Part shown: positions 6,585 to 57,919 of the stretch, one piece after another
How the letters are laid out: the number at the start of each line of letters is the position of its first letter
How positions within the stretch are numbered: position 1 is the stretch's first letter
Origin: a virus
Length of the DNA: 64,000 nt
Reading direction: 5' to 3' (one strand)
IMG/VR virus record: IMGVR_UViG_3300045988_098110
Coordinates: 14,402-78,401 of that record
The notes under the pieces: model-generated
What the model was told of the DNA's origin: nothing
What the model saw: the letters and a program-made list of their open reading frames with translations, nothing else
Databases searched by the model: none
Translations under genes and position numbers: made by a program

Positions 6585-6625
6585 AACAAAAAAGGGAGGT
6601 GCGACAGCCTCCCTTTTTCTTTTTA
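6585..6625. terminator. bidirectional rho-independent terminator
   Basis: GGGAGG (6594-6599) / CCTCCC (6608-6613) stem with an A-run upstream and a T-run downstream, between the convergent int and methylase genes. Confidence 0.7.
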
Positions 6626-6640
6626 TAAAAAATGACTAAG

Positions 6641-7411
6641 TTAGAACAACGTGAGCTGCGCTTGCTCCTGCTTGATGCGCTTGCAAGCCTTGTCGTAATA
6701 CTCCTTGTTGAGCTCAAAGCCGATGAAGTTGCGCTTCTCGCGGATGGCCGCTATGGCGGTGGTGCCGCTACCCATACAGTTGTCTAAGATGGTGTCGCCC
6801 TCGTTGGAGTAGGTGCGGATGAGGTACAGAATAAGAGCTGCCGGCTTTTGCGTAGGGTGCATGTCCCTTTCCTTTTCCTTGTCGAAGAAGAGCACAGATA
6901 TGGGGTATTTCTCGGTGGTCATTTCCTTTGAGTAAACCTCGTTGTTATAACGTCCATAACAAACATTACCTTTCGGCTTACCATACTTATGCCCTCTCGA
7001 ATGGTTGGGAAACCCTGGGCGCATTTGCGGATTAAACGTTGGCAAAGCTCGATAGAACACGGCTATGTCCTCATGGCATCGCATAGGCATCCGCTTTGCG
7101 TTCAAAAAGCCTGTGGGCCTGTCCTTTTGCCATATCAGGTTATAACGCCAGTTCTTAGGCTCGGCCATCATGAGCTTTGCTGTAAACATTCCTTGGCAGA
7201 AAAGGATGATGGGCGCATTCTCTTTTGCAACACGCCAATATTCCTTAAAAAGAGGATCTATGGGAATCATGCAATCCCATTGAGCTTTTTCGTTGCCTCT
7301 GTTCAAAACCTCATACGGCAAGTCGCAGATAATACAATCTACGCTCCCGTCAGGAATCTTCTTCATCCCTTCCAGGCAGTCTTCGTTATATATCTTATTC
7401 AGTTCTATCAT
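6641..7411 (-). CDS. DNA methyltransferase (N6A/N4C beta class, N6_N4_Mtase type)
   Basis: Motif IV IICDLPY comes before motif I DNCMGSGTTAIAA. HPTQKPAALILYLI is typical of this family. Confidence 0.8.
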   Translation of the reverse strand: MIELNKIYNEDCLEGMKKIPDGSVDCIICDLPYEVLNRGNEKAQWDCMIPIDPLFKEYWRVAKENAPIILFCQGMFTAKLMMAEPKNWRYNLIWQKDRPTGFLNAKRMPMRCHEDIAVFYRALPTFNPQMRPGFPNHSRGHKYGKPKGNVCYGRYNNEVYSKEMTTEKYPISVLFFDKEKERDMHPTQKPAALILYLIRTYSNEGDTILDNCMGSGTTAIAAIREKRNFIGFELNKEYYDKACKRIKQEQAQLTLF

Positions 7412-7548
7412 GCTTTGTTACGTTTTAATCGGCACCTTCAACAATCGTAAACCCATGCCTCGCAGCCGTTGTGTCGCGTCGTGCCGAGCGTTTGGTCTCG
7501 CTGTCGTAGCAGACGATGCGAGGGTCGCCTAATGGGTCGGCAAAGTGG

Positions 7549-8010
7549 CTATACTTTCATTTCCGGACTAAATTTCACTATCTTGAGGATAATCTGTAGT
7601 TCGTGAACGTATTTTATTTTACGCAAAAGGGCATATCCGTTCACGTTGAAGTGCTTTATGAACACTGGCCAATTGTATTTGTTTCTTTCTACTGCCAAAT
7701 ATCTGGCAAAATAGTTTTCTTTTCTGTCTTTGATTGGCCTTGTGAAGTACTTGCTCTCAACATCTTCCTTAAAGCCATTGTTGCGAAGGATTTCGGGCGT
7801 GATGGGTACGCCATCGATGTTGTTGCACCATGTTCCCCATGGACCGTCGTCTTCGTCGTTGGCAGCCTTCAGAGTGACGGCTCCCTTCTTGTCATTATAC
7901 TGTCGGTCGGGATGGATATCGGTAACGATACACAATGTGCCTTTCGGAAACGTGCAGTCTTTGTTAGTCTGCACAATGTCGCCTATTCTAAGGTCTTCGG
8001 GGTTAATCAT
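7549..8010 (-). CDS. hypothetical protein
   Basis: 153-aa ORF in the operon. No motif recognised. Confidence 0.55.
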   Translation of the reverse strand: MINPEDLRIGDIVQTNKDCTFPKGTLCIVTDIHPDRQYNDKKGAVTLKAANDEDDGPWGTWCNNIDGVPITPEILRNNGFKEDVESKYFTRPIKDRKENYFARYLAVERNKYNWPVFIKHFNVNGYALLRKIKYVHELQIILKIVKFSPEMKV

Positions 8011-8542: not shown

Positions 8543-9025
8543 TTAGTCTTCTTGAATGCCCAGTTTCTTACGCCATTCAGGATCGTGGATAGAACCAACG
8601 ACCTCTGATTTTTTAGTATCGGAACTATTGAGAAAATCTTCTCTTCCAGTCTCATCTTCTGCTGATATAGAATCAGGATTCTTGTGCAGAACAAATATAT
8701 AAGATAAGAAGTCCACGGAATAATAGATTGATAAGTAATAATTACAAACGACGTTTCCGCATTCATCAAAATCCGAGTAATCACTCAGTTCAAACGGATC
8801 AAAACTTAATAAATCTCCCTCGTAAATATCCTTGCCATTCTCGTCGGTTAATCCGGTGAACTGGCAGACGGTATCAGGGTCAACCAATACCGCTTCATTA
8901 CGATTAAGCATAGAATCTTTCTGTCTATCCTTAATGATGTAGGTATTATCACACTCCTTATAGTAATAGCCTTCAATCCACTCACTACTATCAACACTCT
9001 TACCTTTGAATTTGATGGTTCTCAT
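8543..9025 (-). CDS. YopX-family phage protein
   Basis: MRTIKFKGKS...VCQFTGLTDENGKDIYEGDLL...VVGSIHDPEW matches the YopX pattern (REIKFR.., QYTGLKDKNGKEIYEGD, IGNIHDNPEL). Confidence 0.7.
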   Translation of the reverse strand: MRTIKFKGKSVDSSEWIEGYYYKECDNTYIIKDRQKDSMLNRNEAVLVDPDTVCQFTGLTDENGKDIYEGDLLSFDPFELSDYSDFDECGNVVCNYYLSIYYSVDFLSYIFVLHKNPDSISAEDETGREDFLNSSDTKKSEVVGSIHDPEWRKKLGIQED

Positions 9026-9030
9026 AATAT

Positions 9031-9219
9031 CTACTTTTTATGTTTCTTGTGCACCCCTGCGAAAACGTAAAGAAATAATACAAGAATGTTTCCCACCACA
9101 ATTAAGATCATTGGCAGCATTACTAACCACCACGACCAACTGATTGCTCCACAGAGTTTCATCACAATGAAGGCTACCTGAAGCGACACAATCATATAAT
9201 CAATAATTCCAAATTTCAT
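9031..9219 (-). CDS. small two-TM membrane protein
   Basis: 62 aa, two hydrophobic helices and a basic tail (HKKHKK). Confidence 0.5.
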   Translation of the reverse strand: MKFGIIDYMIVSLQVAFIVMKLCGAISWSWWLVMLPMILIVVGNILVLFLYVFAGVHKKHKK

Positions 9220-9243
9220 ATCTCGTTTATAATTTGTTTAGAC

Positions 9244-9525
9244 TTACAACACATTTTTCGACAGCTGGCTCATAATATTATAAGCAGTACCATCTTCCGA
9301 AGATTCTTTCCATAGCTTGGCAAGAGCGCAATCTTGATACAAACCACAATAATGACTAAGTAGCCAGTCGGTAAGTTTACCTTTAACCTTTTTGCAACCT
9401 TCGTCAAGTCGTTTACGACAATGAAAACAACTACATGGCACTTTTATATTTATCCAGTTGTCACGAATTTCATCGTCAGACGTTCCATAAAAGAATTGCT
9501 CGACATCATCAGTTATTATTTCCAT
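9244..9525 (-). CDS. hypothetical Cys-rich protein
   Basis: 93 aa; CSCFHCRKRLDEGC suggests a zinc-binding knuckle. Confidence 0.5.
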   Translation of the reverse strand: MEIITDDVEQFFYGTSDDEIRDNWINIKVPCSCFHCRKRLDEGCKKVKGKLTDWLLSHYCGLYQDCALAKLWKESSEDGTAYNIMSQLSKNVL

Positions 9526-9571
9526 AATATATTCAAATCCTAAATCCAGACAACCTTAAATCCGTTTTCCT

Positions 9572-10138
9572 TCAATCTGACGATATGGGACAAAGTCTGT
9601 CAGGCTTCAACTGCTCGTCCGACAACGACTCCGAGCTATACAGCGACAGGTCATTATGCCAGTGGTCTTCGTCGCCTATATCGATGTAAGGGTTCTCGGG
9701 TATCTCGCAAGTTTTCACACTTGTCACCCACTCGCTCGGTATGTACGAGCCAAACACCTCCATCTTCTTTTGCAAGGGGAACGATTGGTGCAAGGGACAG
9801 TACTTTCCGGCGAACTTATAGCACAATACCCTATGCAGCTTTCCGTCCTGCGACTCAAACGAGACAATATGGCGGTTCCCGCGGTGCAAGGCGGCCATTA
9901 CGCGAAGAAAGTCCTCCCATCCCACATCCCTGTGCAGCTCGCCTCTGATATTGTTGAAATAGCACTCCCAGAGGTCACGGCGCATGAAATACCAAAGAAA
10001 GTCCATGTCCGTTTCGTTCATCTGCGGAATACTCTTCCACACAAACTCACGCCATACGTGCTGACGGAGGTGCGAGCCTCTTGCGAACCCCTCGATGGCG
10101 CAGAGGAAGTCGTGGTGGTCAAGACTGATGGTAATCAT
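9572..10138 (-). CDS. hypothetical protein
   Basis: 188-aa ORF with a 4-nt overlap with the upstream gene. Confidence 0.55.
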   Translation of the reverse strand: MITISLDHHDFLCAIEGFARGSHLRQHVWREFVWKSIPQMNETDMDFLWYFMRRDLWECYFNNIRGELHRDVGWEDFLRVMAALHRGNRHIVSFESQDGKLHRVLCYKFAGKYCPLHQSFPLQKKMEVFGSYIPSEWVTSVKTCEIPENPYIDIGDEDHWHNDLSLYSSESLSDEQLKPDRLCPISSD

Positions 10139-10341
10139 AAGCCACCTCCCTCCTGTTCTGCGTTCAGCTCATCGAGCATGTCCTGCGATACGGCGAGAAG
10201 GTGCTCGTAGTCGCCTGACGTGGCCTCGTCGGCGTACTTGGCCTTTTCCTCGACAGTCCTCCCACATTCATTCATAGCGCGGCCAACGTAACTAATGATG
10301 GCAATGGCGTTTCCGTCCTGCCCTTCTAATGTGTACTTCAT
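10135..10341 (-). CDS. hypothetical small protein
   Basis: 68-aa ORF, translationally coupled to 9572..10138. Confidence 0.5.
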   Translation of the reverse strand: MKYTLEGQDGNAIAIISYVGRAMNECGRTVEEKAKYADEATSGDYEHLLAVSQDMLDELNAEQEGGGL

Positions 10342-10372: not shown

Positions 10373-11095
10373 TTATTTTAGAGTAAAAAGTCGCTCAATT
10401 GGTCTTTTGGTTGCGACCGGGTTGAGGGAGTTTGTTACCTCCTTCTCCCAGACGCAAGTAAAATCTTCGGGCATGTGATACTCGCTCACGAACACCTTGT
10501 GCCCGGCGCTGGCAACGCTCTTGCACCATGAGTAAAACGCATCATGGTTGAACTTGCCGTAACGGTATCCTGTTTTCCCTTCGTAAGGGATGTCACAGTA
10601 AACAATGGAACGAGGAGGCAAATCGAGGCAGTCGTAAGAGCCTGCAACAAACTCTACGCCTTGCAATGGGTCAATATCCTTCTTGATGTTAGCTATATAC
10701 TCGGCTATGTAGTCACGGACCTTCCCGTCCTTGCCGACTACGTTGTGTCCGGTGTAACCTTGGAAGAACTTTCCGTTGAAGCTCGACATGAACCCTATCC
10801 ACCCTATCTCATCATCTGAGTAGCCCAATTCAATATTTCCACTGGCCTGCATCCTCGCATGGTAATACATCTTCTTTGTGATGGTGGAAGGGAACCTTTG
10901 TCCTGCAAGCAAGGAGCGCCACATGGCAATAAGGTATTCGTTCTTGTCGTTCGCTATGCGCCTGTACGTTGAAGGCACACGCTCAATGACGCTGCAACCT
11001 CCACAGAAGGCGTCAACGAACGTGCTTCGGTCGTTGTCGAGCATGATGGGGAGTATTTCATCCGCTATTCGTCGTTTGCTTCCTATGTATCTCAT
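10373..11095 (-). CDS. dam: Dam-like DNA adenine methyltransferase (D12 class)
   Basis: MRYIGSKRRIADEILPIM...FVDAFCGGCSV (motif I) and IVYCDIPYEG (DPPY-type motif IV) match the MethyltransfD12 layout. Confidence 0.75.
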   Translation of the reverse strand: MRYIGSKRRIADEILPIMLDNDRSTFVDAFCGGCSVIERVPSTYRRIANDKNEYLIAMWRSLLAGQRFPSTITKKMYYHARMQASGNIELGYSDDEIGWIGFMSSFNGKFFQGYTGHNVVGKDGKVRDYIAEYIANIKKDIDPLQGVEFVAGSYDCLDLPPRSIVYCDIPYEGKTGYRYGKFNHDAFYSWCKSVASAGHKVFVSEYHMPEDFTCVWEKEVTNSLNPVATKRPIERLFTLK

Positions 11096-14167: not shown

Positions 14168-14205
14168 ACAAAAAAACAATCCCCACCTACGCTTGGCAGG
14201 TGGGG
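14168..14205 (-). terminator. rho-independent terminator
   Basis: CCCCACCT (14181-88) / AGGTGGGG (14198-205) stem followed on the minus strand by a T-run (plus-strand A7 at 14170-77), downstream of 14271..14798. Confidence 0.7.
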
Positions 14206-14270
14206 AGAGAAACGAGAAAACTTTTTAAAGCGTTTGAGTTTTCTACAACGCTCGCTCGATTATCTTGTTG

Positions 14271-14798
14271 TTAGTCTTTGTTGCGGTCAATCAATCCGAT
14301 GGCGTAGTGGTTCGTGTCGTAGGTGTACGACATGGTGCGCTTTTTAATCGTGCTGTAATATTCGCCACAACAAGCCAAAACAAGCTCATCGTCTTCGGCG
14401 TCCTCGATCTCGTCCTTAATCTTCTCCATCTTATCGAGGAAACAACGCAGAGAGTCGAAGTCATCGAAGTCAGATACAAAGGGTTGCACCTCGTTCTCGT
14501 AGAACCCCTCCAAGTCCTTCTTCGAAAATTCACGGTAGTCATCGCCATATTCGTCAGCCGAACGCTCAAAAGGTTCGTGTGCCTGACATCCCGTTCGATA
14601 CCACATGTCCCATCCGTCACGCTTGTGGAAAATCTCAATGCTCAGCCCGTTCTCCTTCGCCAACTCCTCGGCCTGCTCAAATGAGTCGAAGCCGATAATG
14701 GCCTTCTTCAAATCCTGAGGATAACCGTTCCTCGCTGATGTTGTGTCGATCAACTCCAAGCCGTTCTCCGTTGCTATATCTTCAAAGTTGCTAATCAT
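14271..14798 (-). CDS. strongly acidic hypothetical protein
   Basis: 175 aa. Hand count gives 43 D/E against 20 K/R, with runs such as DFDDFDS and EIEDAEDDE. Confidence 0.6.
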   Translation of the reverse strand: MISNFEDIATENGLELIDTTSARNGYPQDLKKAIIGFDSFEQAEELAKENGLSIEIFHKRDGWDMWYRTGCQAHEPFERSADEYGDDYREFSKKDLEGFYENEVQPFVSDFDDFDSLRCFLDKMEKIKDEIEDAEDDELVLACCGEYYSTIKKRTMSYTYDTNHYAIGLIDRNKD

Positions 14799-14841
14799 GA
14801 TAAAATGACTTAACCGTGATGTCGAGGGCTGATGATTGTTG

Positions 14842-15117
14842 TTACCAAATTTCTTCTACTTCAAACTCCACGTTGCCATCCCAGTCGAAGGAGTCGCTAT
14901 CACTCTCCTCTTCTGGCGAGAGATACCAGTATGCGGTCAACCTGCAACCGTCCATTGTGACGGGCACACCTGCATACTCGGCCTTTCCGATATGTTCGGG
15001 GTTCTCGAATGATGGGTACATAACCCTGCTGGTAGGCTCTGCTCCTTGTGACATGGCGGCCTGTACACTCTCCTGGCCGAAGCTCTCGATGGCCTCCTGC
15101 TTTGTAATTCGTTTCAT
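14842..15117 (-). CDS. acidic hypothetical protein
   Basis: 91 aa with an acidic tail, SPEEESDSDSFDWDGNVEFEVEEIW. Confidence 0.55.
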   Translation of the reverse strand: MKRITKQEAIESFGQESVQAAMSQGAEPTSRVMYPSFENPEHIGKAEYAGVPVTMDGCRLTAYWYLSPEEESDSDSFDWDGNVEFEVEEIW

Positions 15118-15174
15118 ATTTACTTTGTTGTTAGATGGTTCTATCTATTTTAGTTATTACTTGTTGCGGCCAGT

Positions 15175-15195
15175 GGCACAATCAAAAATTGTGCC
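15175..15195. repeat. perfect palindrome GGCACAAT-caaaa-ATTGTGCC
   Basis: 8-bp arms located 34 nt past the recombinase stop. ATTGTGCC recurs at 16375-16382 inside the hairpin CGCCCGG..CCGGGCG (16357-16387), upstream of the same gene. Confidence 0.4.
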
Positions 15196-15228
15196 GATAA
15201 GCCAAATTGCGATAAGAAATGCCATGGG

Positions 15229-16335
15229 TTATTCTTCCTCCTTTCTGTCGGTGTCTTGGTTATTGTTATTGAGTTCTTTGTAATACTGCTTAATGTCGGA
15301 GTCGCTCATGCCCTTCTCTCTCATGATCCTGTAGTCTGCACTGTCACGGCGAAGGTTCACGCGGTCCTCGTAGACTGTTCGCAGGTTGTAATAAGCGTTA
15401 CGCACGCGCTCAAGGGTGAGCACCTTCCCGGTCGATGACATGATACCCATTTGTTGAAGGGTGTACGACGCTTGCGAGAAGTTGTTTTTCGTTAGCTCTG
15501 TGAAGTTATTTGTGCATTGACGGACAATTGCCCATATCGCTTTGTTACAAGGCTTCTCAGCGGCTTCTTTCTTACGTCTCTCGGCGGCTGCCGTTCGGGC
15601 TGCTGAAAGGTCGCTTTTCTTCGGGCGCCCGAGCTTCGTTACCACCTTTCCGGATTTGGATGAAATAAACTGGCCGTCCTCCTCGAGTTTTTTCTTCCTG
15701 ACATCCAATGCGCTTTGCGTGCGCTCTTGGATTAACTCCTTCTCCATCTGAGCCGAGAAAGAGAAAGCGAACAGGAGCATTTCGTCGATGGCCCGCAAGT
15801 GGGCGCAATCAAGGTCGATGCCCATCTGGACTATGACAAGGCGCACACCTCTTGGCTTCAACTCGTCGTTAACAAACTTGTTGATATCGCTCATGGAGCG
15901 GCCTATGCGGCTAACCTCTGATACGATAAGGGTATCACCCTTCTTCAGCATAGGTAGCACGATCTTTCCAAGGTTTCTGTCCTTGTAGGTCACACCGCCG
16001 CTTACTCCCTCGTCGCTCACCTCTTGCGTGGCTGTCATGTTATGGTCTTTCAACCACTCGTTGACGGTCCTTTCCTGCTGCTCAAGGGTCTGTTTCTCGG
16101 TTGATACTCGGCTATATATGATAACCTTTGGTTTTTTCTCCTCCTCTTCTTTCGCTTTCTTTTCTCGTATGGAAATCTCGTGCTTAACGTTGCATAGCTT
16201 ATCCCTCCTGCAAACGACCTTGCCGCCTATCACATTGTGACAGACGCACTCCTTGCAGTAAGCTTTGTGGTCGGGAGGAATTATGTCGTAAAACTCCTCT
16301 CGTCCGTCCTGTGTTATGCGCTTTGTTAGTTCCAT
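15229..16335 (-). CDS. serine recombinase (resolvase/invertase catalytic domain) with Cys-rich N-terminal extension
   Basis: KVIIYSRVSTEKQTLEQQ...DEGVSGG...GDTLIVSEVSRIGRS is the resolvase N-terminal domain with the catalytic Ser. An N-terminal extension of about 70 aa contains CKECVCH..CRRDKLC. Confidence 0.8.
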   Translation of the reverse strand: MELTKRITQDGREEFYDIIPPDHKAYCKECVCHNVIGGKVVCRRDKLCNVKHEISIREKKAKEEEEKKPKVIIYSRVSTEKQTLEQQERTVNEWLKDHNMTATQEVSDEGVSGGVTYKDRNLGKIVLPMLKKGDTLIVSEVSRIGRSMSDINKFVNDELKPRGVRLVIVQMGIDLDCAHLRAIDEMLLFAFSFSAQMEKELIQERTQSALDVRKKKLEEDGQFISSKSGKVVTKLGRPKKSDLSAARTAAAERRKKEAAEKPCNKAIWAIVRQCTNNFTELTKNNFSQASYTLQQMGIMSSTGKVLTLERVRNAYYNLRTVYEDRVNLRRDSADYRIMREKGMSDSDIKQYYKELNNNNQDTDRKEEE

Positions 16336-16407
16336 TGTTGTTTACTATTTGATTAACGCCCGGCCTTTCACATTATTGTGCCGGGCGTGCTTATTATATA
16401 ACTAATT

Positions 16408-16866
16408 TTATTTCTTCGGGCTTTCTATTTGGGTGCAAATGGCAACACGCTCGCCGCTCTTTATGAGCTTTGGGAGGTATGTGTCAAGGGCGTGGTGTGG
16501 AAATCCTGCTATCTTTCCAAGCTCTTTTGTGTGGCGATTGGTAAGCGCAATACCAAGGATTTTAGATGCCTTTTCGGCGTCCTCGTTGTAGATTTCATAG
16601 AAATCACCACAACGGAAAAGCAATAAGGCGTCAGGGTGCTTTTCTTTCAGGTCTTTCCATTGCTGGTAAAGGCTTTTGTTCGCTGTCACTGGAGTGTACT
16701 CGCTTTCCGTGTGCTCTATCGAGTCGCTACACATGTAGCTAATCTCTTCCTTCTTGTATCCAAGCTGTGTGAGGTATTGCATAACCTCCTCGCTTGTCCA
16801 GTCGTCCGGACAACCTGTGATCGTGTCGATGGAGGAGTTTCTATAGTTTAAGATTGCAATTTTCAT
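16408..16866 (-). CDS. stand-alone MutS domain I (mismatch-binding domain)-like protein
   Basis: ORF trimmed to ATG 16866 (ATGA overlap with the upstream stop). The C-terminal 90 aa are [45 protein letters not shown]...[30 protein letters not shown]. This aligns with the E. coli MutS N-terminus ([35 protein letters not shown]...[28 protein letters not shown]). Confidence 0.7.
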
Positions 16867-17366
16867 ATTATTTCTGATGTTTGGTTCGCTGGATTTTTTG
16901 CCGCACGAAGGAGTAAAACCCATTGGTCACTGGTAACATACAACTCGAATATGTCGGACTTCTTCCGGCCGCACTCCACGCTCTTTTCCGCAGCGGTACG
17001 CCTGTCTCTGCAAAGAACATACACATCGTTGGTGTCTCTGAAATACCAGTAGCACACGCCAGGGCCATTCAGGAGGAATATCTCTTTGTCACGCTTCCAC
17101 AACTGCTCTCTAAGGAGTAGTTTCTGCCGTTGGATGCACGTTTTGTTGATGTCGCCGGCTTTAAGTGTGGTCACGAACTTGTGCTTGCAACGCTTCTCTA
17201 TCAGCTTGAGGAGGTTGGGGCGCCATGCCTCGTTGTCCACAAATGGGAAGCCTCTGTTCTGGAATGAATACTCCGTGCCGTTAACGCTTACATGTATCTC
17301 GCTTTTGTTCTCGATTGGCGCGTTCTTTACGGCCTCAAGGAGTTTTGAAATCTCTGCTTTTGTCAT
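16863..17366 (-). CDS. hypothetical protein
   Basis: 167-aa ORF, coupled to the MutS-I-like gene. Confidence 0.55.
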
Positions 17367-17397
17367 ATAGCTTAATAATTTAATAATTATGTTTAAG

Positions 17398-17583
17398 TCA
17401 AACGGCGTACACGCCGCGCACGCTGCGCATGTATGTCCAATAATTCACATCGTCCCATTTATAGCAAAGGTATCTGCCTTCTCTTCTGTCGTACTCGTCG
17501 CGAATCCAAACGGGAGCATCTTCGCTGCATGAAAGTCTGAAAAGCCCTCCAAACTTAATCTTTTTAAGCTCAATCTTTTTCAT
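17398..17583 (-). CDS. small hypothetical protein
   Basis: ORF 17398..17646 trimmed to ATG 17583 (MKKIELKKIKFGG...). Confidence 0.45.
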   Translation of the reverse strand: MKKIELKKIKFGGLFRLSCSEDAPVWIRDEYDRREGRYLCYKWDDVNYWTYMRSVRGVYAV

Positions 17584-17708
17584 GATGTCTTGTTTTAAGT
17601 TAAACTTGTTGGCGGCCGTGACTTGCGCACGGCTGTGGGCTGCCATTCGGCTCCCGTCGCCATTCCACCCGCAAAGGGGCTATCTATCATCTATGCAATT
17701 AACTGTTA

Positions 17709-18641
17709 TTAGTCGTCTGAACAGTACGTCCATTTGCGGATCTTCGTTAATCCGTAACGCTTCAGGTAGGAGTCTATCTGCTTCATAAATTTCGCCCGCA
17801 ATATGTACACCGCCCTCAGGTATTTCTCTTTGAGATCGAAGGTCTCCTCCTTGGTTAGCTTGGTAACGCCATCGGTGGTGGCGTAATCCGGGTCGAGGAT
17901 GTAGTAAATAACACCACGTGCTTGATCGCTGTAGCATTTCGCGATGGCTACTTCGTCGCGCCCTTCCAACAACTCCTCGTAACGGCTTACCGTCCTATCG
18001 AACTTCTCAAGGTTCCGGAGCTTAAAGTCCTCCTCGCTGAAAGATTTGCAAGACTCGCTTGCCTCTTCATAGGAGGGACCGTAAAAACTGCTATACCCGA
18101 AACAGAAACTTTTTTCAATCTCTGGTTTGTCGAACTCGAAAAACACCCCGTCGCGCAACTTCATGGCCTTATACAAGCTGTCAGCAAGCCAGCTGCCAGC
18201 GCTCTTCAATATACTCCGCGCCTCTTCGGTCTCGTCATCCAACCAATTGTTACAAGACTTCTTGTTTGCCCGTTTTCCTCTCGCCTGAGCCGTTAAAAAC
18301 TCTTCGATGGCGAATGTATCAGGCGGCCAGCCTTTCGCGTCCAAGAAGTCCGCAAATGAGTCTTGTTTCTTGGTGTTCCAGGTCTTAACTATTGCTAACA
18401 CCTGAAAAATCTCTGGGTCTATCCAAGACTCGGAGTAAAACTCGTCCGGGAGGCACTCTTTATCTTGGAACATGAACTCGGGTTCGTGCTCGTCCTTGTG
18501 CAGCTTTGCGCATGCTTTCAGGAACTCCTCGCCCGTCTTATATTGTGCAAGCTGCATCCAATCGCCATCTATACTCCCGTTGTTGTACTTTCCGTATGTG
18601 CCACAATAAACGGCGGCGTTAAGTATTTCCAATTTTGCCAT
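17709..18641 (-). CDS. ardA: ArdA-like antirestriction protein (N-terminal ArdA domain, long C-terminal extension)
   Basis: Trimmed to ATG 18641. AAVYCGTYGKYNNGSIDGDWMQL...LHKDEHEPEFMFQDKECLP resembles the ArdA N-terminus (Y..LGKYNEGELVGAW.., EYAIHDYE). Confidence 0.55.
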   Translation of the reverse strand: MAKLEILNAAVYCGTYGKYNNGSIDGDWMQLAQYKTGEEFLKACAKLHKDEHEPEFMFQDKECLPDEFYSESWIDPEIFQVLAIVKTWNTKKQDSFADFLDAKGWPPDTFAIEEFLTAQARGKRANKKSCNNWLDDETEEARSILKSAGSWLADSLYKAMKLRDGVFFEFDKPEIEKSFCFGYSSFYGPSYEEASESCKSFSEEDFKLRNLEKFDRTVSRYEELLEGRDEVAIAKCYSDQARGVIYYILDPDYATTDGVTKLTKEETFDLKEKYLRAVYILRAKFMKQIDSYLKRYGLTKIRKWTYCSDD

Positions 18642-18701
18642 AACTGAAAAGATTAAATTTGTTGTTAATGAAAAAGTTGTGCGCTTTCCGTTGTCGCCCA
18701 A

Positions 18702-18997
18702 CGGGTTTTAGGCGTTCGCTCGCCCTTGTGTCATTTTACAACCTTAACAAGATCGGCGGAGGTACAAAGCGCCTCGCGCTGCGTTTGGAGTGCGCCTCTC
18801 GTTTTCTCGCTTTCAGTCCTTTCTTTGTTTGTGGCGGGAAACGGCTCAAAGGGAACTACTATCCGAAAATCTGTAAAACCGCCAGGAGGTTAATGGTACC
18901 TCTTTGTTCCGTTGCCAGCGTCGCTCTGGTATGGTTTCAATCCCCAACGGAAATAATAATAATAGCTGAAAGCTGCCTTAACGCTTCCAAGGAGTTT
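18702..18997 (-). other. ORF-free structured spacer upstream of the ArdA-like gene
   Basis: About 300 nt with only an implausible plus-strand ORF. There are two hairpins with the same stem sequence CCGTTG/CAACGG (18688-18704 and 18908-18951); the second encloses CCAG..CTGG. Confidence 0.3.
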
Positions 18998-19279
18998 CTA
19001 CTCGTGCAACAAGAAATCCAGTGACTCAAAAACTCCAACAAGGTTAAGATCTTGATCGTCTGGCACAACCCCGGTCGCTGCAATGTATAATTTGCAAGCC
19101 CGGGCGCCTAAAACTCCCGCCTCGTTGCCAAGTTGTTCGGCCCGTCTTCTGATACGTGCAAAGCTCGTGTTAACGGTGCTTTCGTTCACGGCCTTAACAA
19201 GTGTTAGGAGCTCATCGTCGATTGAAATAATACGGTATCGGATCTCCTCTAAAAGGAGGTTTAGTCTGCGTTTTCTCAT
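18998..19279 (-). CDS. hypothetical protein
   Basis: ORF 18998..19411 trimmed to ATG 19279 (MRKRRLNLLLEEIRYR...). Confidence 0.5.
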   Translation of the reverse strand: MRKRRLNLLLEEIRYRIISIDDELLTLVKAVNESTVNTSFARIRRRAEQLGNEAGVLGARACKLYIAATGVVPDDQDLNLVGVFESLDFLLHE

Positions 19280-19423
19280 GGTGTTGTTTATTAAGTTGTT
19301 TATTACGTTGAGCAAAACGGCCAAATGTTTGCGCGTGGCGGCCTGTTTCGCGTGTTGTGGTGTTGTTACCCGTCGCAAACATTTGGCGGGCGTGTGGGCG
19401 CTCGTTTGCACCCGGGCGGTGTG

Positions 19424-19513
19424 TTATTCGTTGGTGAATGTGTTCCAGTGCTTACCAACGTAGAGCCCGGCCAAATAAGCCGCGGCAACTGAAAGCAATA
19501 TAAAGTTTGTCAT
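19424..19513 (-). CDS. possible 29-aa hydrophobic peptide
   Basis: MTNFILLSVAAAYLAGLYVGKHWNTFTNE. It is below the ORF-track cutoff and fills the gap between two genes. Confidence 0.25.
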   Translation of the reverse strand: MTNFILLSVAAAYLAGLYVGKHWNTFTNE

Positions 19514-19559
19514 GAAATTAAAGGGGTTGAGGCCCCGCCGCAAATGGCGGGGCGTGTTG

Positions 19560-20384
19560 TTACAACTGTTTGTTAACCTCGTTCAGGAGGTCCTCCTCAC
19601 TGTCTTTATACAAGTCCTTTGTATCAATATAGACGAATTTAGAGAAATGCTTTGCTAAAATAGCTTTGCTTTCCAAGCAAGACAATACGCACCCATAACC
19701 ATTATCTTTTAGTTTACCGTTTTTTTCAACCCAATTACGGCAATGTCTTCTTGAAAAGGAGGGGTTCGCGATCGGATAAGCCACCTTGGTAAGGTTCAGC
19801 GGTTTTCCGCTATCTTTGATTTTCACGACAAGTACGCCGGTGTTTCTGCTTTTACAAAAGTAGGAGATATATGTTATATAAACGTTTAGTCTATACCCTT
19901 TTGATTCCAGGGCTGCAACGACGTTTAACAAATTTACACCAAACGCGGCGAGTTCATCTCCCCCGACGGTGTAGGGTACCGTGTTGTTTATAATCAAATT
20001 AACAACTTTCGTACTTTTGTACGACTGGGAGCGCACGAAAAACATATTGTTTGGATTACCCGAAAGGTACGCCGGGATATTTGGAACGAAGCCAACCGGG
20101 CCGCGTGTTATGGTGTTCTTTACGCCCTTTGCCTGTTTGATGTTACGCGCTTTCGCGTTCATCTTTTTCGCCGTCTCTAAATCCACGTTCATTAAAAGGT
20201 CGTCGGCCTCCTCGAATGATTTCGTACCCGTGAAAGCGGTTCGCGATTCGCCCGTTCGGTGTGATATAAGAATATCTTTGTAAAAAGGATCGACCGGGCG
20301 GGCGTTCATGGTATTAACAAATTCGCTAATACTTTCGTAACGCTCGAAAACGTCCTTATTTGTTGTTGTTGTTTTTTTTCTCAT
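19560..20384 (-). CDS. hypothetical protein partnered with the AAA+ ATPase (possibly degenerate vWA/CobT-like)
   Basis: 274 aa, immediately downstream of the ATPase. The strand-helix pattern VVNLIINNTVPYTVGGDELAAFGVNLLNVVAALESKGYRLNVY is Rossmann/vWA-like but lacks a clear MIDAS motif. Confidence 0.55.
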   Translation of the reverse strand: MRKKTTTTNKDVFERYESISEFVNTMNARPVDPFYKDILISHRTGESRTAFTGTKSFEEADDLLMNVDLETAKKMNAKARNIKQAKGVKNTITRGPVGFVPNIPAYLSGNPNNMFFVRSQSYKSTKVVNLIINNTVPYTVGGDELAAFGVNLLNVVAALESKGYRLNVYITYISYFCKSRNTGVLVVKIKDSGKPLNLTKVAYPIANPSFSRRHCRNWVEKNGKLKDNGYGCVLSCLESKAILAKHFSKFVYIDTKDLYKDSEEDLLNEVNKQL

Positions 20385-20440
20385 GTGGTTATTGTGTTGA
20401 TCGCCCCGTTCGTATCTGGAACGGGGCGCGGTGGAAAATG

Positions 20441-21724
20441 TTACTTAATCATTCCAACAAGGGCGGCGGCGAACCGGTTACCCTTGAGGCTTGAAAGGTT
20501 GACGCTCAATTCTCTAATATCGTCTACTTGCATTCCACGAAGAACGAAGCCGTTCAGGAGGTCGGCGGCGTCCATGTCGTAGTACTTGTTTAGCTTCGTT
20601 ATTGCGCGGTAACCGCAAATAAGTGGGAGTTGCAAGGTAGCGGCGGCCGTTCTCAAGGCGCGCACGAACTCGATAACGTCCGGGTGTTCGCTTGAAATGG
20701 CTTCTTCTATTCGTGGATCATAGTCCACTTTGTAAAAGAAAAAGCGGTCGCGGCTTGATTCGTCCATCTTGTAGCGGCCGCAATACTCCTCCGTGGCACC
20801 CTGGCCGTTCGTGTTACCCGCGGCGACGCAATAGAAATTCTTATGTGCTGCAACCTTACCAACGCCGGGAAAGGTGTAGTAACCGTTTGCGAGGGCGGCG
20901 TTGAGGGCAACCAGGGCTTCAGCCTGGGAGTTATCGCATTCGTCGAGCATGAAAAGGCCGCCCTTTGTCCATGCCTTGTAAAATTCGGTTTCCTCGAATT
21001 CGCCCCCGGCGTTCTTATAGCCTGAAATATCGAATTTTGTAAGAATTGTGTTTTGATAATAGAAATCTACACCCAGGGCGGCGGCGAGCTCCTCGCAAAG
21101 TACGTTCTTTCCAGAGCCCGCGGGGCCGTAAAGGTATATATTTTCGTGAGATCCGAGCATGTTAACCAACATCTTAAAGCCCTTGTCTAAGATTTTAGGA
21201 GTCTCGTGTGTGTGTGTAACGCCGTCGATCGTTACGTTAATGGTCGTACCCGTCCCGGCCTTCTGGGCGGCCTCAAGTTGGTTTTTAAGGTCCTCGATCG
21301 TAGCGGCGGCCTCCTGTTTCGCTGCCTGGTAGCCCGCAAGGCGTTTTGCCTCAAATAAGCCGCCAAGCGCGGTTAACACGCCGTCGGTGCCTTGAGCGGG
21401 CGCCGGGGTGGGAGGAGTTGTCGGTTTTGGTGTGGTCGGTGTGGTGGGTGTTGTGTTCTGTTTTCGCCCGCCCTCGTAGTCGCTGAATGTAACTTCAAGG
21501 GAGCGTCCCTTGCTTACCCAGACAACGCGCGCGCCCGCCTCGTCGATTCGCTCAACTCTCATTTCCTGAGCGCTTGAGCCGTACCGCGGGTGTCCGGGCA
21601 CGCCGTTAAATGTTGAGCCGGCCTCGAGGGTGTCGGTGTGCTCTGCTGCATAGTTCAACACTTGAGCTTCAAATTCGGTAAATCCGCCTTCTTTGCGGAG
21701 TTTACCAATAGATAATTTGCACAT
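20441..21724 (-). CDS. AAA+ ATPase (AAA_5 / MoxR-CobS-like) with N-terminal domain and Pro/Thr linker
   Basis: Walker A YLYGPAGSGKN, Walker B GLFMLDECD and a sensor region CVAAGNTNGQG. The linker is TTPTTPTTPKPTTPPTPAP. Confidence 0.75.
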   Translation of the reverse strand: MCKLSIGKLRKEGGFTEFEAQVLNYAAEHTDTLEAGSTFNGVPGHPRYGSSAQEMRVERIDEAGARVVWVSKGRSLEVTFSDYEGGRKQNTTPTTPTTPKPTTPPTPAPAQGTDGVLTALGGLFEAKRLAGYQAAKQEAAATIEDLKNQLEAAQKAGTGTTINVTIDGVTHTHETPKILDKGFKMLVNMLGSHENIYLYGPAGSGKNVLCEELAAALGVDFYYQNTILTKFDISGYKNAGGEFEETEFYKAWTKGGLFMLDECDNSQAEALVALNAALANGYYTFPGVGKVAAHKNFYCVAAGNTNGQGATEEYCGRYKMDESSRDRFFFYKVDYDPRIEEAISSEHPDVIEFVRALRTAAATLQLPLICGYRAITKLNKYYDMDAADLLNGFVLRGMQVDDIRELSVNLSSLKGNRFAAALVGMIK

Positions 21725-21787
21725 GATAGATAGATATTTAATTTGTTAATAATTCCAAATTAGTTTTTTTGCCAGAATAAAATAACC

Positions 21788-21870
21788 TATCTTTGCACCG
21801 CGTTAGGTCCTTGATAGATTTAATTTTATCGAGGCCGCCCGGTTAGCTATTTGTTAGCCGGGCTTTTTTA
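21788..21870 (+). ncRNA. candidate small RNA (promoter box, two hairpins, U-tract)
   Basis: TATCTTTG at 21788-95. Hairpin CCTTGATA/TATCGAGG at 21809-34. Terminator-like GCCCGG/CCGGGC at 21837-63 followed by TTTTTT. Confidence 0.3.
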
Positions 21871-22056
21871 TTGTACCCCGCAGCGCTTCGATCGCTGCAC
21901 GTTAGCCGCCCGAGAATATACCAATTTTGGAGGGGTCATAGGCTTTCATTTATCATGTAATTCATTTCGTTACTCTAACTTTTCACTACTCACTTAACAT
22001 GTTTCAGCGCTTCCGAATTATATAGCTCCCAGGTTTCCCAGTTCTAAAAGGGTCCG

Positions 22057-24085: not shown

Positions 24086-24691
24086 ATGGCAAAGGACTGG
24101 AGCGGAAACGGCAAGTCAGTGTTTGTGACGCTTGGAGCATCCAATCACACGGACAAAGAGCGAGAGGCTAACGACTTCTATGCCACTGACCCCATAGCCA
24201 TTGACAAGCTCATCGGGTCTATCGGGTTTATCCCGAGCATTGTTTGGGAGTGTGCCTGCGGGACAGGTTGTTTATCAGAAAGGCTTGAACAATATTGCCA
24301 CGGAGTTGTTTCCACCGATGTCATTGACCGTGGCTACGGCCAAGTTCAAGATTTTTTGCTTGCGAAAGAAATGCCGAGTGGTTGCTCCTGCATAATCACC
24401 AACCCACCCTACAAACTCGCCACTGAGTTTATTCTTCACGCATTGAGTTTGCTACCCGACGGTGGCCGGTGCATAATGTTTCTGAAAACCACGTTCCTTG
24501 AAGGAGAGAAACGCCATAGGCTTCTATTTAGCAAATACCCCCCCCTACGCATATTACAGTTCTCCAAGCGTGTCCTTTGCGCAAAGAACGCAGAGTTTCA
24601 GAAAATGCGCAAAGTAGGCTCGGCAGTCTCCTACGCATGGTTCGTTTGGGAGAAGGGCTACAAAGGGGAGACTACAATAACATGGATTTAG
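24086..24691 (+). CDS. DNA N6-adenine methyltransferase (NPPY type)
   Basis: Motif I WECACGTGCLS and motif IV CIITNPPYK. Confidence 0.75.
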   Translation: MAKDWSGNGKSVFVTLGASNHTDKEREANDFYATDPIAIDKLIGSIGFIPSIVWECACGTGCLSERLEQYCHGVVSTDVIDRGYGQVQDFLLAKEMPSGCSCIITNPPYKLATEFILHALSLLPDGGRCIMFLKTTFLEGEKRHRLLFSKYPPLRILQFSKRVLCAKNAEFQKMRKVGSAVSYAWFVWEKGYKGETTITWI

Positions 24692-43945: not shown

Positions 43946-46900
43946 ATGAAGAAAGGTGATTTATACATAAAAACATCATCTGTTGATAGTAGCGGGAAAG
44001 AGGTTGTTTCTCTTTTCCCGTCAGAAACTCATGCTCTTAGGCTTGGCTCATATACGTACAATAGCAAGAGAATGGGAGGTGCGCCAACATTAACTGCAAC
44101 AGTGTACTCTCGCAAACCCATTATATGGGAAAAAGACGTATTTGTCGAGTTTCTTGGAGAGCGATACTACGCAAGTTATACTCCGAGCATGAGCGAGGAC
44201 AACACCTCTATGATGTTTAAGTATGACATAGAGTTTGTTTCAAGACGTGAACTGCTTGACAATACACTTTTCTTCGATGTTGTTTCTGACAATGAACAGA
44301 CACAGGATTCAGACAAATATCGCTCAAATCAAACATCGTTCAAATTCGGTGGAACAATAAGCGAGTTCGTTTCTCGCATCAATAGCTCTATGGCCTATTG
44401 TGGACTTTACTTGCCAAACTCGAAAGATAAGGGGTATCATGTTGTTATTGATGAAGGTTACGGGACAGATGATGTAAAAGAGGTTTCTTTTGAGGATCAG
44501 TATCTCTCAAATGTGCTCCAGCTTATCTATTCAACCTTTGGCCTCACCTATTATTGGATTGGTAAAGAGTGTCATGTTGGCAAGCAGCAAAACGACTTGA
44601 GCGTAAGCGGTAATTACGGAAAGAAATACGCGCTTCGTTATGGCAGAAACGATTCCTTTTTGTCGGTTAGTAAACAAAACTCCAACAACAAGATTGTTGA
44701 CATGGTAACTGGCCATGGTTCATCGGACAATATACCTTATTACTATCCGAACGACGACGAGTACGGAAAGGCAGTTTATAGCACAGAAAACTTTGACGAG
44801 TCTTTAGTAAAGAATATAGACCTTGGAAAAGTTTTTGGATGGGACGCAAACATATATAACGACACGCTCATTCTTGGGAATAACAAGAGAAAGGAGTACA
44901 CTGCATCTATCTTCGGTGCATCAAAGTACCTTGTTTCTACCTATTCAACAAAAATTGCAGAAGGCATAGGGGAGTCTGTGCGAAAAGTGGCCTCTACATG
45001 TCAGATGGGCGAAAGGGTGAGTAGCTGGAATAGCGGTTCGTCAAGCCGTCTTGTCGGGGAGAATGTTATGTATCTTATGTTTGAGCTGAACGGTATATCG
45101 AACGGAAGCATCAAGCTTGACGACATTTCATTCAACGCAACCGAGGATGATGGCCAGGAGAAACTTGGACTCACGTTCAAGTACGAAAACTCATATTATG
45201 TGTTTGATGATGCAGATATAAATACCGCATTTAACGCACTAAAAAACGCTGGAAAAGAAAAAGAAAACTCAGGGAATGATGGATATTTCGCTGGTGGCGG
45301 GTCAATAAGCTCTAATGCTTCAAGCTCAAAAGAGTGGGAGTTCGGAGATAGCCTGACAGGTTCATCCAACTACACAAGATCTGACGGAAAGACGGTTGTG
45401 TTCATCAAATCGGGAAAGTGTACAATAGTTATCGGATGCAAGGTTTCCGCTACGAATATTACTGTCGCTTCTGGGACTAAACGTATGACAAATGTATCTA
45501 TGGTTGCCAAAGGCAATTTGTCATACACGTATAAGCCCAAAAGCGTTTACTATTTCGACTATGGCAACGGAAAGAGTATAGGCTACGAAGATAGTGGTGT
45601 CGTTATTAACAACATAGACAGTATACCAAGTAACGAAATTGAGTTTTTCTTCAACGGGATAGAATGGAAGACTTCAAGCAACATCAGTAACAGCGCGTCA
45701 AAAATCCGCATTACTGATCGTGTTTGGATATTGCCTACGCAATACCTAATGCCAAGCATTTACAGGAATAGCCTTGGAGTTGAACGGTTCTATTACGCTC
45801 TTAACGGAACGCACAAAAAGCAAGACGGAAGTGACGAGTATTACTCATTTCAAAACGAGTATAAGCAAGGCAACCCTCATCAAGGAAGCGTGTCTTTTGA
45901 AGACATAAAGCCTACCATAAACGGGGTGAGGAACGATGTTATACAGAAAGACGGACTTGGTCAGTTGTTCGGAGAAATTGCCGATGTTGCCTTTGATAGC
46001 GCAGATAGCGATGTCAAAGACGACAATGACAATTACATACACTCATATTTCTATATCAAACTCCATAAGTTTAGCGGAGAGTTTGGATTTGACCTGTTCA
46101 AGCATGCGTTAGCAAACGAAACGGCAAAGATAAATCTAATCAAGAGCAACGGGTGCCCAGCCTGTTCTTTTGAGATAGGATGTCATTGGGATGCACAAAA
46201 GGCCAACTGTTACAATATTGTGCAGACAGATGAGGATGGAAACTTAAAATCTTACCGTAAAGACTATAATGATTACATCCTTCCCGATGCGTTGGTAGAG
46301 GAGCAGAAGAGAAACCAAAACTCTGAGCTTGAAGAGTTGTGGATATGTGTCAAAAAAGACACATCCACGCTTGGAGTCATTATGCCTAATGCAAGTGCAG
46401 GATTCAAGCCGCAGAAGGGCGACATGTTTGTTATAACAGGAATAAAGCCACCAAAGACTCTTACTACAGCAGCAGAGAAAAGGCTGGATGATGCCTTGAT
46501 AAAATATATGAGTGAGAACAATGAGGATCAATTCAGCTACTCTGTCAAATTCTCACGAATATTCCTTCAGGAAAACAAGGACTTTGCCGAAAAACTAAAC
46601 GAGAACACCAAACTCTCTATTCATATCGACGGAGAGTATGATGATGATGGTAACGAAGTGTTTCATGACGTTTTCGTAAGCGAATACACTGTTAAAGCAG
46701 ATGATAACACTTTGTGCGAAATCAGTGTTTCCCTATCCAACTCACTTTCCGCAACAGAAAGCGATACAAAGAATATTGTCAATGCTGTTAAGGGAGATAT
46801 TCTTCAAGGTATTGCCGGAAGCCTTTCAGGAGTTAGTAGCGGTTTTAACGCAAGCGTAGCCGATAAATACTACCTCTCAAAACGAACGTATGACACCGCT

Positions 46901-51952: not shown

Positions 51953-51974
51953 CAAGCATCAAATCCTATAAAGT

Positions 51975-52772
51975 ATGAAGAAAATAGTTAAAGGTAACGA
52001 TTTCACGCTTCGCATCCCTGTCTGCCGCATGGTGAACGGGGAGGCGGTGCCCTTCCCCTTGCCGGGATGCACCGACATCGTGGTGAACGTGGTGAGCAGC
52101 TACCGCCGACTCTCCCTGCCTTACGCCATCGACGTTTCCGACGACCACATCATCAACGCGCGTGTGGAGGGCGACGCTATCGCTCGTGGCATTTACGCCT
52201 TGGAGGTGAAGGGCAAGTTCCTGGGCAACGACTGGCGAAGCAACGAGTATGAGCAGTTTAGCATCGTGGACAACAACGCTTCGGGCGACACGGCCTTCAC
52301 GCCACAGGAGGGTGAGGACAGCGTGCTGATGGACACGGCCCTCATCATCCTCGCTCCCGACGTGGCGCTGGGCGGACTGATCGCCGATGCCGAGAAAGCC
52401 ATCGCCAAGGTGGACGAAAAGCTGGCCGACGTTGACTCCACGGTTGGCGATGCCGTGCGCAAGGCCGATGCCGCCACTGAGCAGGCCACCACGGCGGCAG
52501 CCAACGCCAACACGCAGGCCGACCGTGCAAAGGCCGTGGCCGACCACCCTGCCAAGATCGGGGAGGACGGCTATTGGTACAGGTGGGACGAGGGGCTGGC
52601 CGACTATGTGCGCACCGACGCGTATAGCCGTGGCTCGCTCGACTTCCCTTCTTTCTACGTTGACAACGACACGGCTGACCTCTACGTGGCTATTACCGAT
52701 GGCAGCGACAAGCGTTTTGAGCTGACGGAGGATGGCGACCTCATCATGCAACCAAACATCATCATTAAATAA
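51975..52772 (+). CDS. tail fibre protein
   Basis: 265 aa with an Ala-rich coiled segment (ATEQATTAAANANTQADRAKA) and a C-terminal RFE..LIM tag. Confidence 0.65.
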   Translation: MKKIVKGNDFTLRIPVCRMVNGEAVPFPLPGCTDIVVNVVSSYRRLSLPYAIDVSDDHIINARVEGDAIARGIYALEVKGKFLGNDWRSNEYEQFSIVDNNASGDTAFTPQEGEDSVLMDTALIILAPDVALGGLIADAEKAIAKVDEKLADVDSTVGDAVRKADAATEQATTAAANANTQADRAKAVADHPAKIGEDGYWYRWDEGLADYVRTDAYSRGSLDFPSFYVDNDTADLYVAITDGSDKRFELTEDGDLIMQPNIIIK

Positions 52773-52781
52773 CATAGAAGT

Positions 52782-53582: not shown

Positions 53583-53586
53583 GCGT

Positions 53587-53865
53587 ATGGCTGATTCTTT
53601 GAACACAGTAAATGTCGTAGCCCTCACGGAAGCAGCCGACCTCAAGGATGGCGACACCCTGTTGCTTATCCGCGACGATGGTCAGGGAGGTAAGACGTGC
53701 TACCGCATCGAGGGACGGTCGTTCCGTGGCAAGAGCGCCTATGAGGTGGCGAAGGAGAATGGCTATACGGGTACGGAAAACGACTGGGCGGCACAGGCCG
53801 CCAAGGTCGCCAATTTCAATGTCCGCTTTGACCCAAGTTCAAAAAGTTTAATCATCAAAAAATAA
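53587..53865 (+). CDS. small tail-fibre-associated protein
   Basis: GKSAYEVAKENGYTGTENDWAAQ is the common fibre SAYE motif. The C-terminus is VRFDPSSKSLIIKK. Confidence 0.6.
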   Translation: MADSLNTVNVVALTEAADLKDGDTLLLIRDDGQGGKTCYRIEGRSFRGKSAYEVAKENGYTGTENDWAAQAAKVANFNVRFDPSSKSLIIKK

Positions 53866-53874
53866 GATAGAATT

Positions 53875-56349: not shown

Positions 56350-56404
56350 TCGCAGCCACCGTGTGTGTATTAAATAATCTTTTAACAAGAAATGCAAGAA
56401 AGAT

Positions 56405-57166: not shown

Positions 57167-57171
57167 GGCGT

Positions 57172-57863: not shown

Positions 57864-57919
57864 CGCAATTATGAAAAATATGTTGTAATTTTACAAAAAC
57901 ACAAAAACAGGAATAAGGT

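Follow-up and report, generated by a model that had tools for sequence, protein, structure and literature searches.

The 64,000-nucleotide stretch analyzed here (the window; positions 14,402 to 78,401 of the virus record IMGVR_UViG_3300045988_098110) encodes on its minus strand a phage protein of 152 amino acids that carries a MutS domain I. Almost certainly this is a small accessory phage protein with two independently folding parts, an acidic domain of about 58 residues and a shortened MutS domain I derived from the MutS of Bacteroidota. It is equally close to certain that the protein belongs to a large class of mobile-element MutS-I modules, which includes the Msl proteins and the MutS-I domains of polyvalent proteins. 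This class was already described in 2017-2018, orthologues are automatically annotated in NCBI nr and UniProt, and the window protein is a further member. The gene and its parts were located as follows.

16408..16866, minus strand: MutS_I gene, stop codon included, encoding the two-domain protein of 152 amino acids (open reading frame listing and sequence)
16693..16866, minus strand: N-terminal domain, residues 1-58, predicted beta-beta-alpha-beta (profile search, AlphaFold2, BFVD)
16414..16671, minus strand: MutS domain I, residues 66-151, last beta strand missing (Pfam PF01624, Foldseek, alignment with Escherichia coli MutS)
16594..16608, minus strand: GDFYE motif, residues 87-91 (sequence and alignment)

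MutS domain I and its mismatch wedge

Residues 66-151 matched the Pfam hidden Markov model MutS_I (PF01624) with E=1.8e-28 and 99.4 bits, against a cut-off of 20.6 bits, over profile positions 3-90 of 113. A complete domain, that is, all 113 profile positions including the last strand, is therefore not present in the 152-amino-acid protein. In the alignment the protein ends about 15 residues short of the end of domain I, at approximately residue 101 of E. coli MutS. The same truncation was found in 41 of 121 relatives, whose ends lie no more than 12 residues from the AICD strand. The NCBIfam equivalogs for full-length MutS were matched over their first ~90 positions only and far under their cut-offs (112 and 103 bits versus 480 and 642), which indicates that domain I is present alone. 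MutS domains II-V (connector, core, clamp and ABC ATPase) were not found in the protein with Pfam or NCBIfam, and it is close to certain that the parts used in repair signalling, namely the connector, lever, clamp, ABC ATPase and dimerisation helix, are all missing. In PHROGs, the match of residues 66-151 was to the N-terminal end of a profile with 853 positions and no assigned function.

The GDFYE motif aligned to G34-E38 of E. coli MutS, so that Phe89 corresponds to Phe36 and Glu91 to Glu38, the two mismatch contacts. Among 121 aligned mobile-element homologues, F89 and E91 were each kept in 118, and G87 and Y90 in all 121. A nearly constant Phe and Glu in the wedge would be expected if the mismatch contact is still under selection.

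The predicted fold is also that of MutS domain I. An AlphaFold2 model built from 121 sequences reached a mean predicted local distance difference test score (pLDDT) of 86, and about 90 over the MutS_I domain. The best Foldseek matches in the PDB were all MutS/MSH chains, the best of them with E=1.7e-8, superposing ~84 residues at ~2 Å with 43-49% identity. This half of the protein (residues 63-152) is basic, with an isoelectric point of 8.9.

An earlier note, made from the sequence alone, had described a MutS domain I that keeps Phe-x-Glu and lacks the ATPase and clamp, preceded by an unrelated part of ~60 residues, and had proposed a Pfam MutS_I search and a structure prediction. The search was significant and the predicted fold matched MutS domain I, as given above; profile, motif and fold bear out the domain assignment, and the N-terminal part indeed belongs to a separate family of small phage proteins. 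The statement that the protein stops right after domain I has to be corrected, since it ends before the end of the domain and the last beta strand is missing.

The product begins with MKIAIL and ends with ESPKK (open reading frame 16408-16866). An alternative reading of 171 amino acids from an ATG at 16923 is possible. The 152-amino-acid start is favored by the end of the upstream gene at 16863 and by the homologues, whose sequences begin with M[KED]I. On other contigs, too, gene callers choose this form, and the exact 152-amino-acid protein was present on 11 metagenome contigs.

The acidic N-terminal domain

The N-terminal half (residues 1-62) is acidic, with an isoelectric point of 4.25, and was modelled with a pLDDT of ~90 over residues 1-47. 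No Pfam family matched residues 1-58. A profile of this domain, searched against 1.84 billion representatives, gave 171 matches at E<=1e-3, mostly free-standing proteins of 55-70 amino acids, and the BFVD matches included phage proteins of 62-71 amino acids, some of them from crAss-like phages. As most members of the N-terminal family stand free, the window gene is a fusion of a common small phage module and MutS domain I.

The family consists of widespread, acidic phage proteins of 55-70 amino acids (for example P0126, P0128, P0131 and P0136) with the consensus M.I.vlNY.t..v..i.n.PDEW..E.IE.YL...L.l..s.iyYM. The domain is sometimes fused to other, unrelated C-terminal parts (P0135, P0144, P0148, P0156 and P0229).

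The predicted template modelling score of the two-domain model was 0.52 despite the high pLDDT, and a homologous BFVD model superposed with an overall root-mean-square deviation of 10 Å. Both values suggest a flexible link between the halves. A circular permutation, in which the N-terminal strand would replace the missing last strand of domain I, was considered and found unsupported, the N-terminal part being an independent small-protein family.

Family size, conservation and origin

The homologue search covered 5.8 billion proteins and returned 3,672 matches. The architecture was read from the best 120, all of which were short (101-261 amino acids) and had MutS_I only. Proteins containing MutS_I thus number in the thousands, and the class is very abundant in gut phages. 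The two-domain architecture was kept across relatives that are 45-58% identical, and the ratio of nonsynonymous to synonymous substitution rates (dN/dS) was 0.12-0.47 among close pairs of subfamily relatives. The MutS_I gene is intact and, judged from these sequences, under purifying selection. Relatives were located in metagenome contigs of Prevotella and other Bacteroidales.

The domain of the window protein was on average 63% identical to domain I of host Bacteroidota MutS, with a maximum of 68% to a Prevotella metagenome-assembled genome. Derivation from a Bacteroidota MutS therefore fits these identities. Within the groups, mean domain I identity was 60% among mobile-element copies and 77% among host copies. 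In a neighbor-joining tree of the 86-column domain, mobile-element and host copies did not form separate groups, and one capture and several captures were indistinguishable.

Comparison with described MutS-like proteins

MutS-I outside MutS was reported on mobile elements of Bacteroidetes and Firmicutes by Iyer, Burroughs, Anand, de Souza and Aravind in 2017 (PMC5512222). There, the MutS-I domains of polyvalent proteins are derived from MutS, occur with ArdC-N in ~80% of cases, and are proposed to bind unpaired DNA in the incoming or replicating element. The window protein shares with them the domain, the Bacteroidetes lineage and a context of counter-defence and establishment, here in a tailed prophage. 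It differs in being a two-domain protein of 152 amino acids and no giant, and its phage has no ArdC-N partner. Among the MutS-I partner domains given in the accessible part of the paper, the acidic N-terminal module was not met.

Small MutS-like accessory proteins of 112-283 amino acids, termed Msl, were described in 16 diversity-generating retroelements (DGRs) by Wu et al. 2018 (PMC5758913), and Msl was present in three of five Bacteroides DGRs studied (bioRxiv 10.1101/2024.11.15.621889). With 152 amino acids the window protein falls within the Msl range, its recognisable part is likewise MutS domain I, and both occur on Bacteroidota mobile elements. However, Msl is defined by its DGR cassette, which consists of a reverse transcriptase (RT), Avd and the template and variable repeats (TR/VR), and the window lacks these; the likeness is drawn from published descriptions. 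Deletion of the host mutS raised DGR mutagenesis 5-10-fold in Bacteroides (bioRxiv 10.1101/2024.11.15.621889), so that masking heteroduplexes from MutS would pay off.

What the protein shares with canonical MutS (E. coli, PDB 1E3M) is the fold of domain I together with the mismatch wedge Phe-x-Glu. The window domain is 43-49% identical to domain I of the E. coli and Taq proteins and 63-68% to that of Bacteroidota MutS. In contrast to canonical MutS, the protein has no domains II-V (ATPase, clamp), no last strand of domain I and no MutL signalling.

Closer counterparts are found in sequence databases. DAH81092.1, DAM98513.1 and UniProt A0A8S5PPT8 have the same two-domain architecture at ~53% identity. 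ORF064c of Bacteroides phage B124-14, a 'putative mismatch repair protein' of 81 amino acids, consists of the domain alone; it is thus a phage MutS_I-only protein as well, and it lies beside a serine recombinase 32% identical to that of the window. All of these entries carry automatic annotations, such as 'MAG TPA: DNA mismatch repair protein [Caudoviricetes sp.]' for the DA* entries. The searchable literature yielded no experiment that tests an Msl or MutS-I protein. The putative activities raised in the earlier note, namely binding of mismatched or branched DNA, capping of heteroduplexes and action as an anti-repair decoy, are ideas already proposed in the literature for this class.

Architectures and neighbours on mobile elements

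A total of 57 dereplicated mobile-element MutS_I proteins were compared, drawn from 80 viral loci, non-MutS genome loci and metagenome contigs. Proteins with MutS_I alone had 81-127 amino acids, and many other forms had an N- or C-terminal extension. ArdC-N was fused to a zincin metalloprotease (MPTase) and MutS_I in proteins of 671-818 amino acids (L026, L029, L036 and L039). ParB_N and HTH_ParB were fused to MutS_I in proteins of 392-701 amino acids (L032, L035, L059 and L062), with MutS_I at either end; ParB was not met as a MutS-I partner in the accessible part of PMC5512222. A SNF2 helicase with MutS_I formed proteins of ~2,040 amino acids (L129, L139 and L160), and a giant of 4,885 amino acids was encoded at L089:1018-15675.

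The commonest neighbour was ArdC, beside 17 of the 57 homologues, and ArdA adjoined a 220-amino-acid MutS_I form. Further neighbours in other loci were ArdA, PcfJ/PcfK, the anti-Pycsar protein Apyc1, DNA methyltransferases and integrases. No ArdC was found anywhere in the window.

Association with reverse-transcriptase systems

In four of six dereplicated groups that have the two-domain architecture of the window protein, a UG27 system was located within 10 kb downstream of the MutS_I gene; it directly followed the gene in three of them and was ~8 kb off in the fourth. PADLOC identified its components as RTas346 (E=1.1e-41), RTas337 (E=1.2e-100) and RT_UG27 (E=8.7e-221). The two-domain MutS_I gene lay upstream of RTas346, RTas337, a non-coding gap and RT_UG27 in viral loci L013, L017-L025 and L047, in most cases adjacent to the system (for example L021:10001-13539 and L017:10001-13877). 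Four further MutS_I architectures were also found within 10 kb of a UG27 RT. The UG27-bearing relatives gave no Rfam match.

UG27, a functionally uncharacterized RT system carried by phages of gut Bacteroidetes and Firmicutes, was described without mention of MutS (PMC9226505) and is defined by RT_UG27, RTas337 and RTas346 (Mestre et al. 2022). Our literature search found no paper linking MutS_I and UG27.

The association was much weaker in the reverse direction. MutS_I was present within 10 kb in three of 80 UG27 loci, and RTas337 and RTas346 in 77 of the 80, in a narrow sample of RTs that were 77-81% identical to one RT. Among the loci with a large-type RT, in which the RT is fused to an RTas346-like C-terminus, MutS_I was within 10 kb in one of six. 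MutS_I as an obligate fourth component of UG27 was rejected on these counts. ArdC stood immediately upstream of the RT in three of the six large-type loci (among L260-L264; in L260, ArdC at 6599-7645 and the RT at 8663-10327), which hints at UG27 lying in an anti-defence island. Beyond the UG27 cases, the 57 representative loci yielded no RVT_1 protein.

The window itself contained no RTas337, RTas346 or RT_UG27. An RT profile searched against its six-frame translation gave nothing at E<=10, no RVT_1 was found among the genes within 10 kb, and repeat searches at two stringencies detected no TR/VR-like repeat in the 64 kb. A DGR in the window was therefore rejected. Most simply, one variable early counter-defence island of related phages would house MutS_I genes, ArdA/ArdC and UG27 together.

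The local operon and the carrier phage

The MutS_I gene belongs to the early, anti-restriction region of a temperate siphophage. Along the minus strand, as transcribed, the order is the ArdA-like gene, an 82-amino-acid gene, a 167-amino-acid gene and the MutS_I gene, then a hairpin and a serine recombinase gene.

17709..18701, minus strand: ArdA-like anti-restriction gene (Pfam ArdA, E=9.8e-11 over residues 31-119; phrog_2059 anti-restriction protein)
17398..17646, minus strand: 82-amino-acid gene between the ArdA-like and 167-amino-acid genes (open reading frame listing)
16863..17366, minus strand: 167-amino-acid gene, its stop overlapping the MutS_I start as ATGA (open reading frame listing and sequence)
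16356..16388, minus strand: GC-rich 9-bp hairpin, ~20 nt past the MutS_I stop codon (RNA fold)
15229..16335, minus strand: serine recombinase of resolvase/invertase type with a Cys-rich N-terminal extension (Pfam Resolvase, E=1.3e-25)

The earlier note put the MutS_I gene two genes upstream of its ArdA-like neighbour; in the direction of transcription it is two genes downstream. The translational coupling that the note proposed agrees with the sequence, where the ATG at 16866-16864 overlaps the TGA at 16865-16863 of the 167-amino-acid reading frame. Its phage context also held, given the tape measure protein, terminase, portal, integrase, S24 repressor and Rha/antirepressor described below.

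For the ArdA-like gene, the gene caller picks a later start, giving 310 amino acids. Homologues of the 82-amino-acid gene were present in several UG27-carrying phage loci. The 167-amino-acid protein had no match in Pfam, PHROGs, NCBIfam or PADLOC; its reading frame is considered coding because its dN/dS is ~0.3, a sign of purifying selection. Its family is narrow (71 matches, all at least 78% identical), its AlphaFold2 model had a pLDDT of 51.6, too low for a fold search, and its pairing with the MutS_I gene was also found in L255. Homologues ~80% identical were located directly upstream of an RT in L252 (6001-6486), L253 (3496-3981) and L254 (3360-3845). There they fill the space between the RT and a ~330-amino-acid gene that is in the RTas337 position, as judged by position and not by profile; the matching space in other UG27 systems was described as a non-coding RNA region.

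The hairpin has a folding energy of -18.3 kcal/mol (z=-3.06; none of 200 shuffles was equally stable). It has no clear U tract and was not listed by a simple terminator scan; it probably marks the end of the transcription unit. The serine recombinase gave a match below cut-off to the Mpi invertase family of NCBIfam, and its Cys-rich extension is ~70 amino acids long; the same phage also has a tyrosine integrase. A serine recombinase gene lies directly beside the MutS_I gene both in the window prophage and in the lytic Bacteroides phage B124-14 (L011:1847-2500).

Other phage genes encode the tyrosine integrase, which has a SAM_5 domain, an S24 repressor, a Rha/KilAC antirepressor and a YopX protein. 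Structural genes encode a tape measure protein, a terminase, an SPP1-type portal and a fibre of 2,668 amino acids with collagen repeats. The carrier is close to certainly a prophage of a temperate Bacteroidales siphophage of the gut, and its host is probably Prevotella or Segatella. The same gene block was seen on human gut metagenome contigs, and window region 14200-22000 had no nucleotide match to deposited phages.

Several further features of the window were recorded. Three DNA methyltransferase genes (N6_N4_Mtase, D12-class adenine methylase and phrog_799) are located at 6641-7411, 10373-11095 and 24086-24691. A conserved pair upstream of the ArdA-like gene (19560-21724), also present in L255, encodes a DUF7192 protein (274 amino acids) and an AAA_5 ATPase of MoxR/dynein type (427 amino acids). 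The tail-fibre region (48000-58000) has a GC content of 0.55-0.59, compared with ~0.42-0.50 elsewhere in the window. It contains collagen-like GXY repeats at 49024-49219, inside the 2,668-amino-acid reading frame 43946-51952, Ala-rich repeats at 52461-54290, and long antisense reading frames (for example minus 51966-52775 versus plus 51975-52772).

Possible function of the protein

As an inference, we favor non-catalytic binding of mismatched or unpaired DNA that would mask such sites from the host MutS-MutL system, a role that we regard as quite possible but short of probable. The protein would be expressed from the early anti-restriction operon formed by the ArdA-like, 82-amino-acid, 167-amino-acid and MutS_I genes, and its conserved Phe-x-Glu wedge on a basic surface would bind mismatched, looped or locally unpaired DNA. 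Since it cannot recruit MutL, it would occupy and mask such sites in phage DNA intermediates, which may be recombination heteroduplexes or, in relatives, hybrids of complementary DNA (cDNA) and DNA. Host MutS-MutL repair or anti-recombination would thus be kept off the masked sites. The N-terminal domain may, speculatively, add a protein contact or self-association that raises affinity. In favor of masking we count the agreement of profile, fold and motif, the conservation, the origin from host MutS, the Ard-type context and the literature.

Several points weigh on the other side. DNA binding and the effect on repair are both deduced from sequence and predicted fold. MutS relies on its clamp domains and on a dimer to bind mismatches stably, and a domain I that stands alone and is one strand short may bind weakly. 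Nor does the window have an RT, DGR repeats or a recognised recombinase that generates heteroduplexes. The frequent pairing with ArdC-N, a binder of single-stranded DNA, fits general binding of unpaired DNA equally well.

This last point leads to the proposal made for polyvalent proteins, in which the domain would bind unpaired or junction DNA in general and would protect or mark element DNA just after entry or during replication, acting beside ArdC/ArdA-type anti-restriction and unrelated to host mismatch repair. ArdC as the commonest neighbour, the ArdC-N-MutS_I fusions and the ~80% co-occurrence with ArdC-N (PMC5512222) agree with it, as do the ParB-MutS_I fusions, which tether the domain to DNA, and the ArdA-like gene in the operon of the window. 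However, generic binding of single-stranded DNA does not need a nearly invariant, mismatch-specific Phe-x-Glu wedge, the window phage has no ArdC, and a double-stranded DNA tailed phage is known to expose little single-stranded DNA at entry; we therefore consider such a general role rather unlikely for this protein. The conserved wedge also speaks against an action at the protein level, in which the protein would imitate the N-terminus of host MutS, titrate a partner or enter MutS complexes and so poison repair without DNA binding. The 63-68% identity to the host domain would suit such a decoy, and the acidic N-terminal domain could serve as its protein-binding handle, but MutS dimerisation and MutL contact are mainly mediated by the connector, ATPase and C-terminus, and a decoy of this kind appears improbable.

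Another explanation is that the protein is the orphaned accessory of an RT system, either a DGR Msl or a UG27 partner, which would act only on cDNA intermediates and would be inactive or vestigial here. In support, Msl is known as a DGR accessory, UG27 follows within 10 kb in four of the six subfamily groups and lies near four other architectures, and homologues of the 167-amino-acid protein directly precede an RT in L252-L254. Yet the counts of three in 80 UG27 and one in six large-RT loci largely refute an obligate partnership, the 57 representative loci held no further RVT_1 protein, and the window, which lacks RT, RTas337, RTas346 and TR/VR repeats, nonetheless keeps the gene intact and under purifying selection. 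We thus give this explanation little credence. Least likely of all is a non-functional fragment of host mutS picked up by the phage. The truncation of the domain and its similarity to host MutS could be read in this way, but the idea is contradicted by the conservation data, namely an architecture kept at 45-58% identity and a dN/dS well under 1. Moreover, matches containing MutS_I number in the thousands with the best 120 all short, fusions of the domain to other functional domains have recurred, and the window gene is translationally coupled to its upstream neighbour, all of which argue that a dead fragment is very improbable.

Masking of mismatches from host repair may extend beyond this phage. 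We suggest, more tentatively than for the window protein, that the stand-alone and fused MutS-I proteins of gut phages and conjugative elements could form a widespread anti-mismatch-repair class, in which the acidic N-terminal domain would here be a reusable adaptor. Members would occupy mismatches or loops in recombination heteroduplexes, in the cDNA hybrids of DGRs or UG27 and in incoming strands just after their replication, and so keep host MutS-MutL away from them; the small acidic domain would be fused by phages to different effector domains.

Host mismatch repair limits recombination between diverged sequences, and it also reverses variation made by DGRs. If a block of MutS is confirmed, the class would give phages a simple switch toward more mosaic recombination and more targeted hypermutation in gut Bacteroidales, and it might provide recombineering tools for organisms in which repair is hard to disable. 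The class is abundant in gut phages and has been noted twice in the literature, and its role as a mismatch-repair antagonist is plausible and easily testable.

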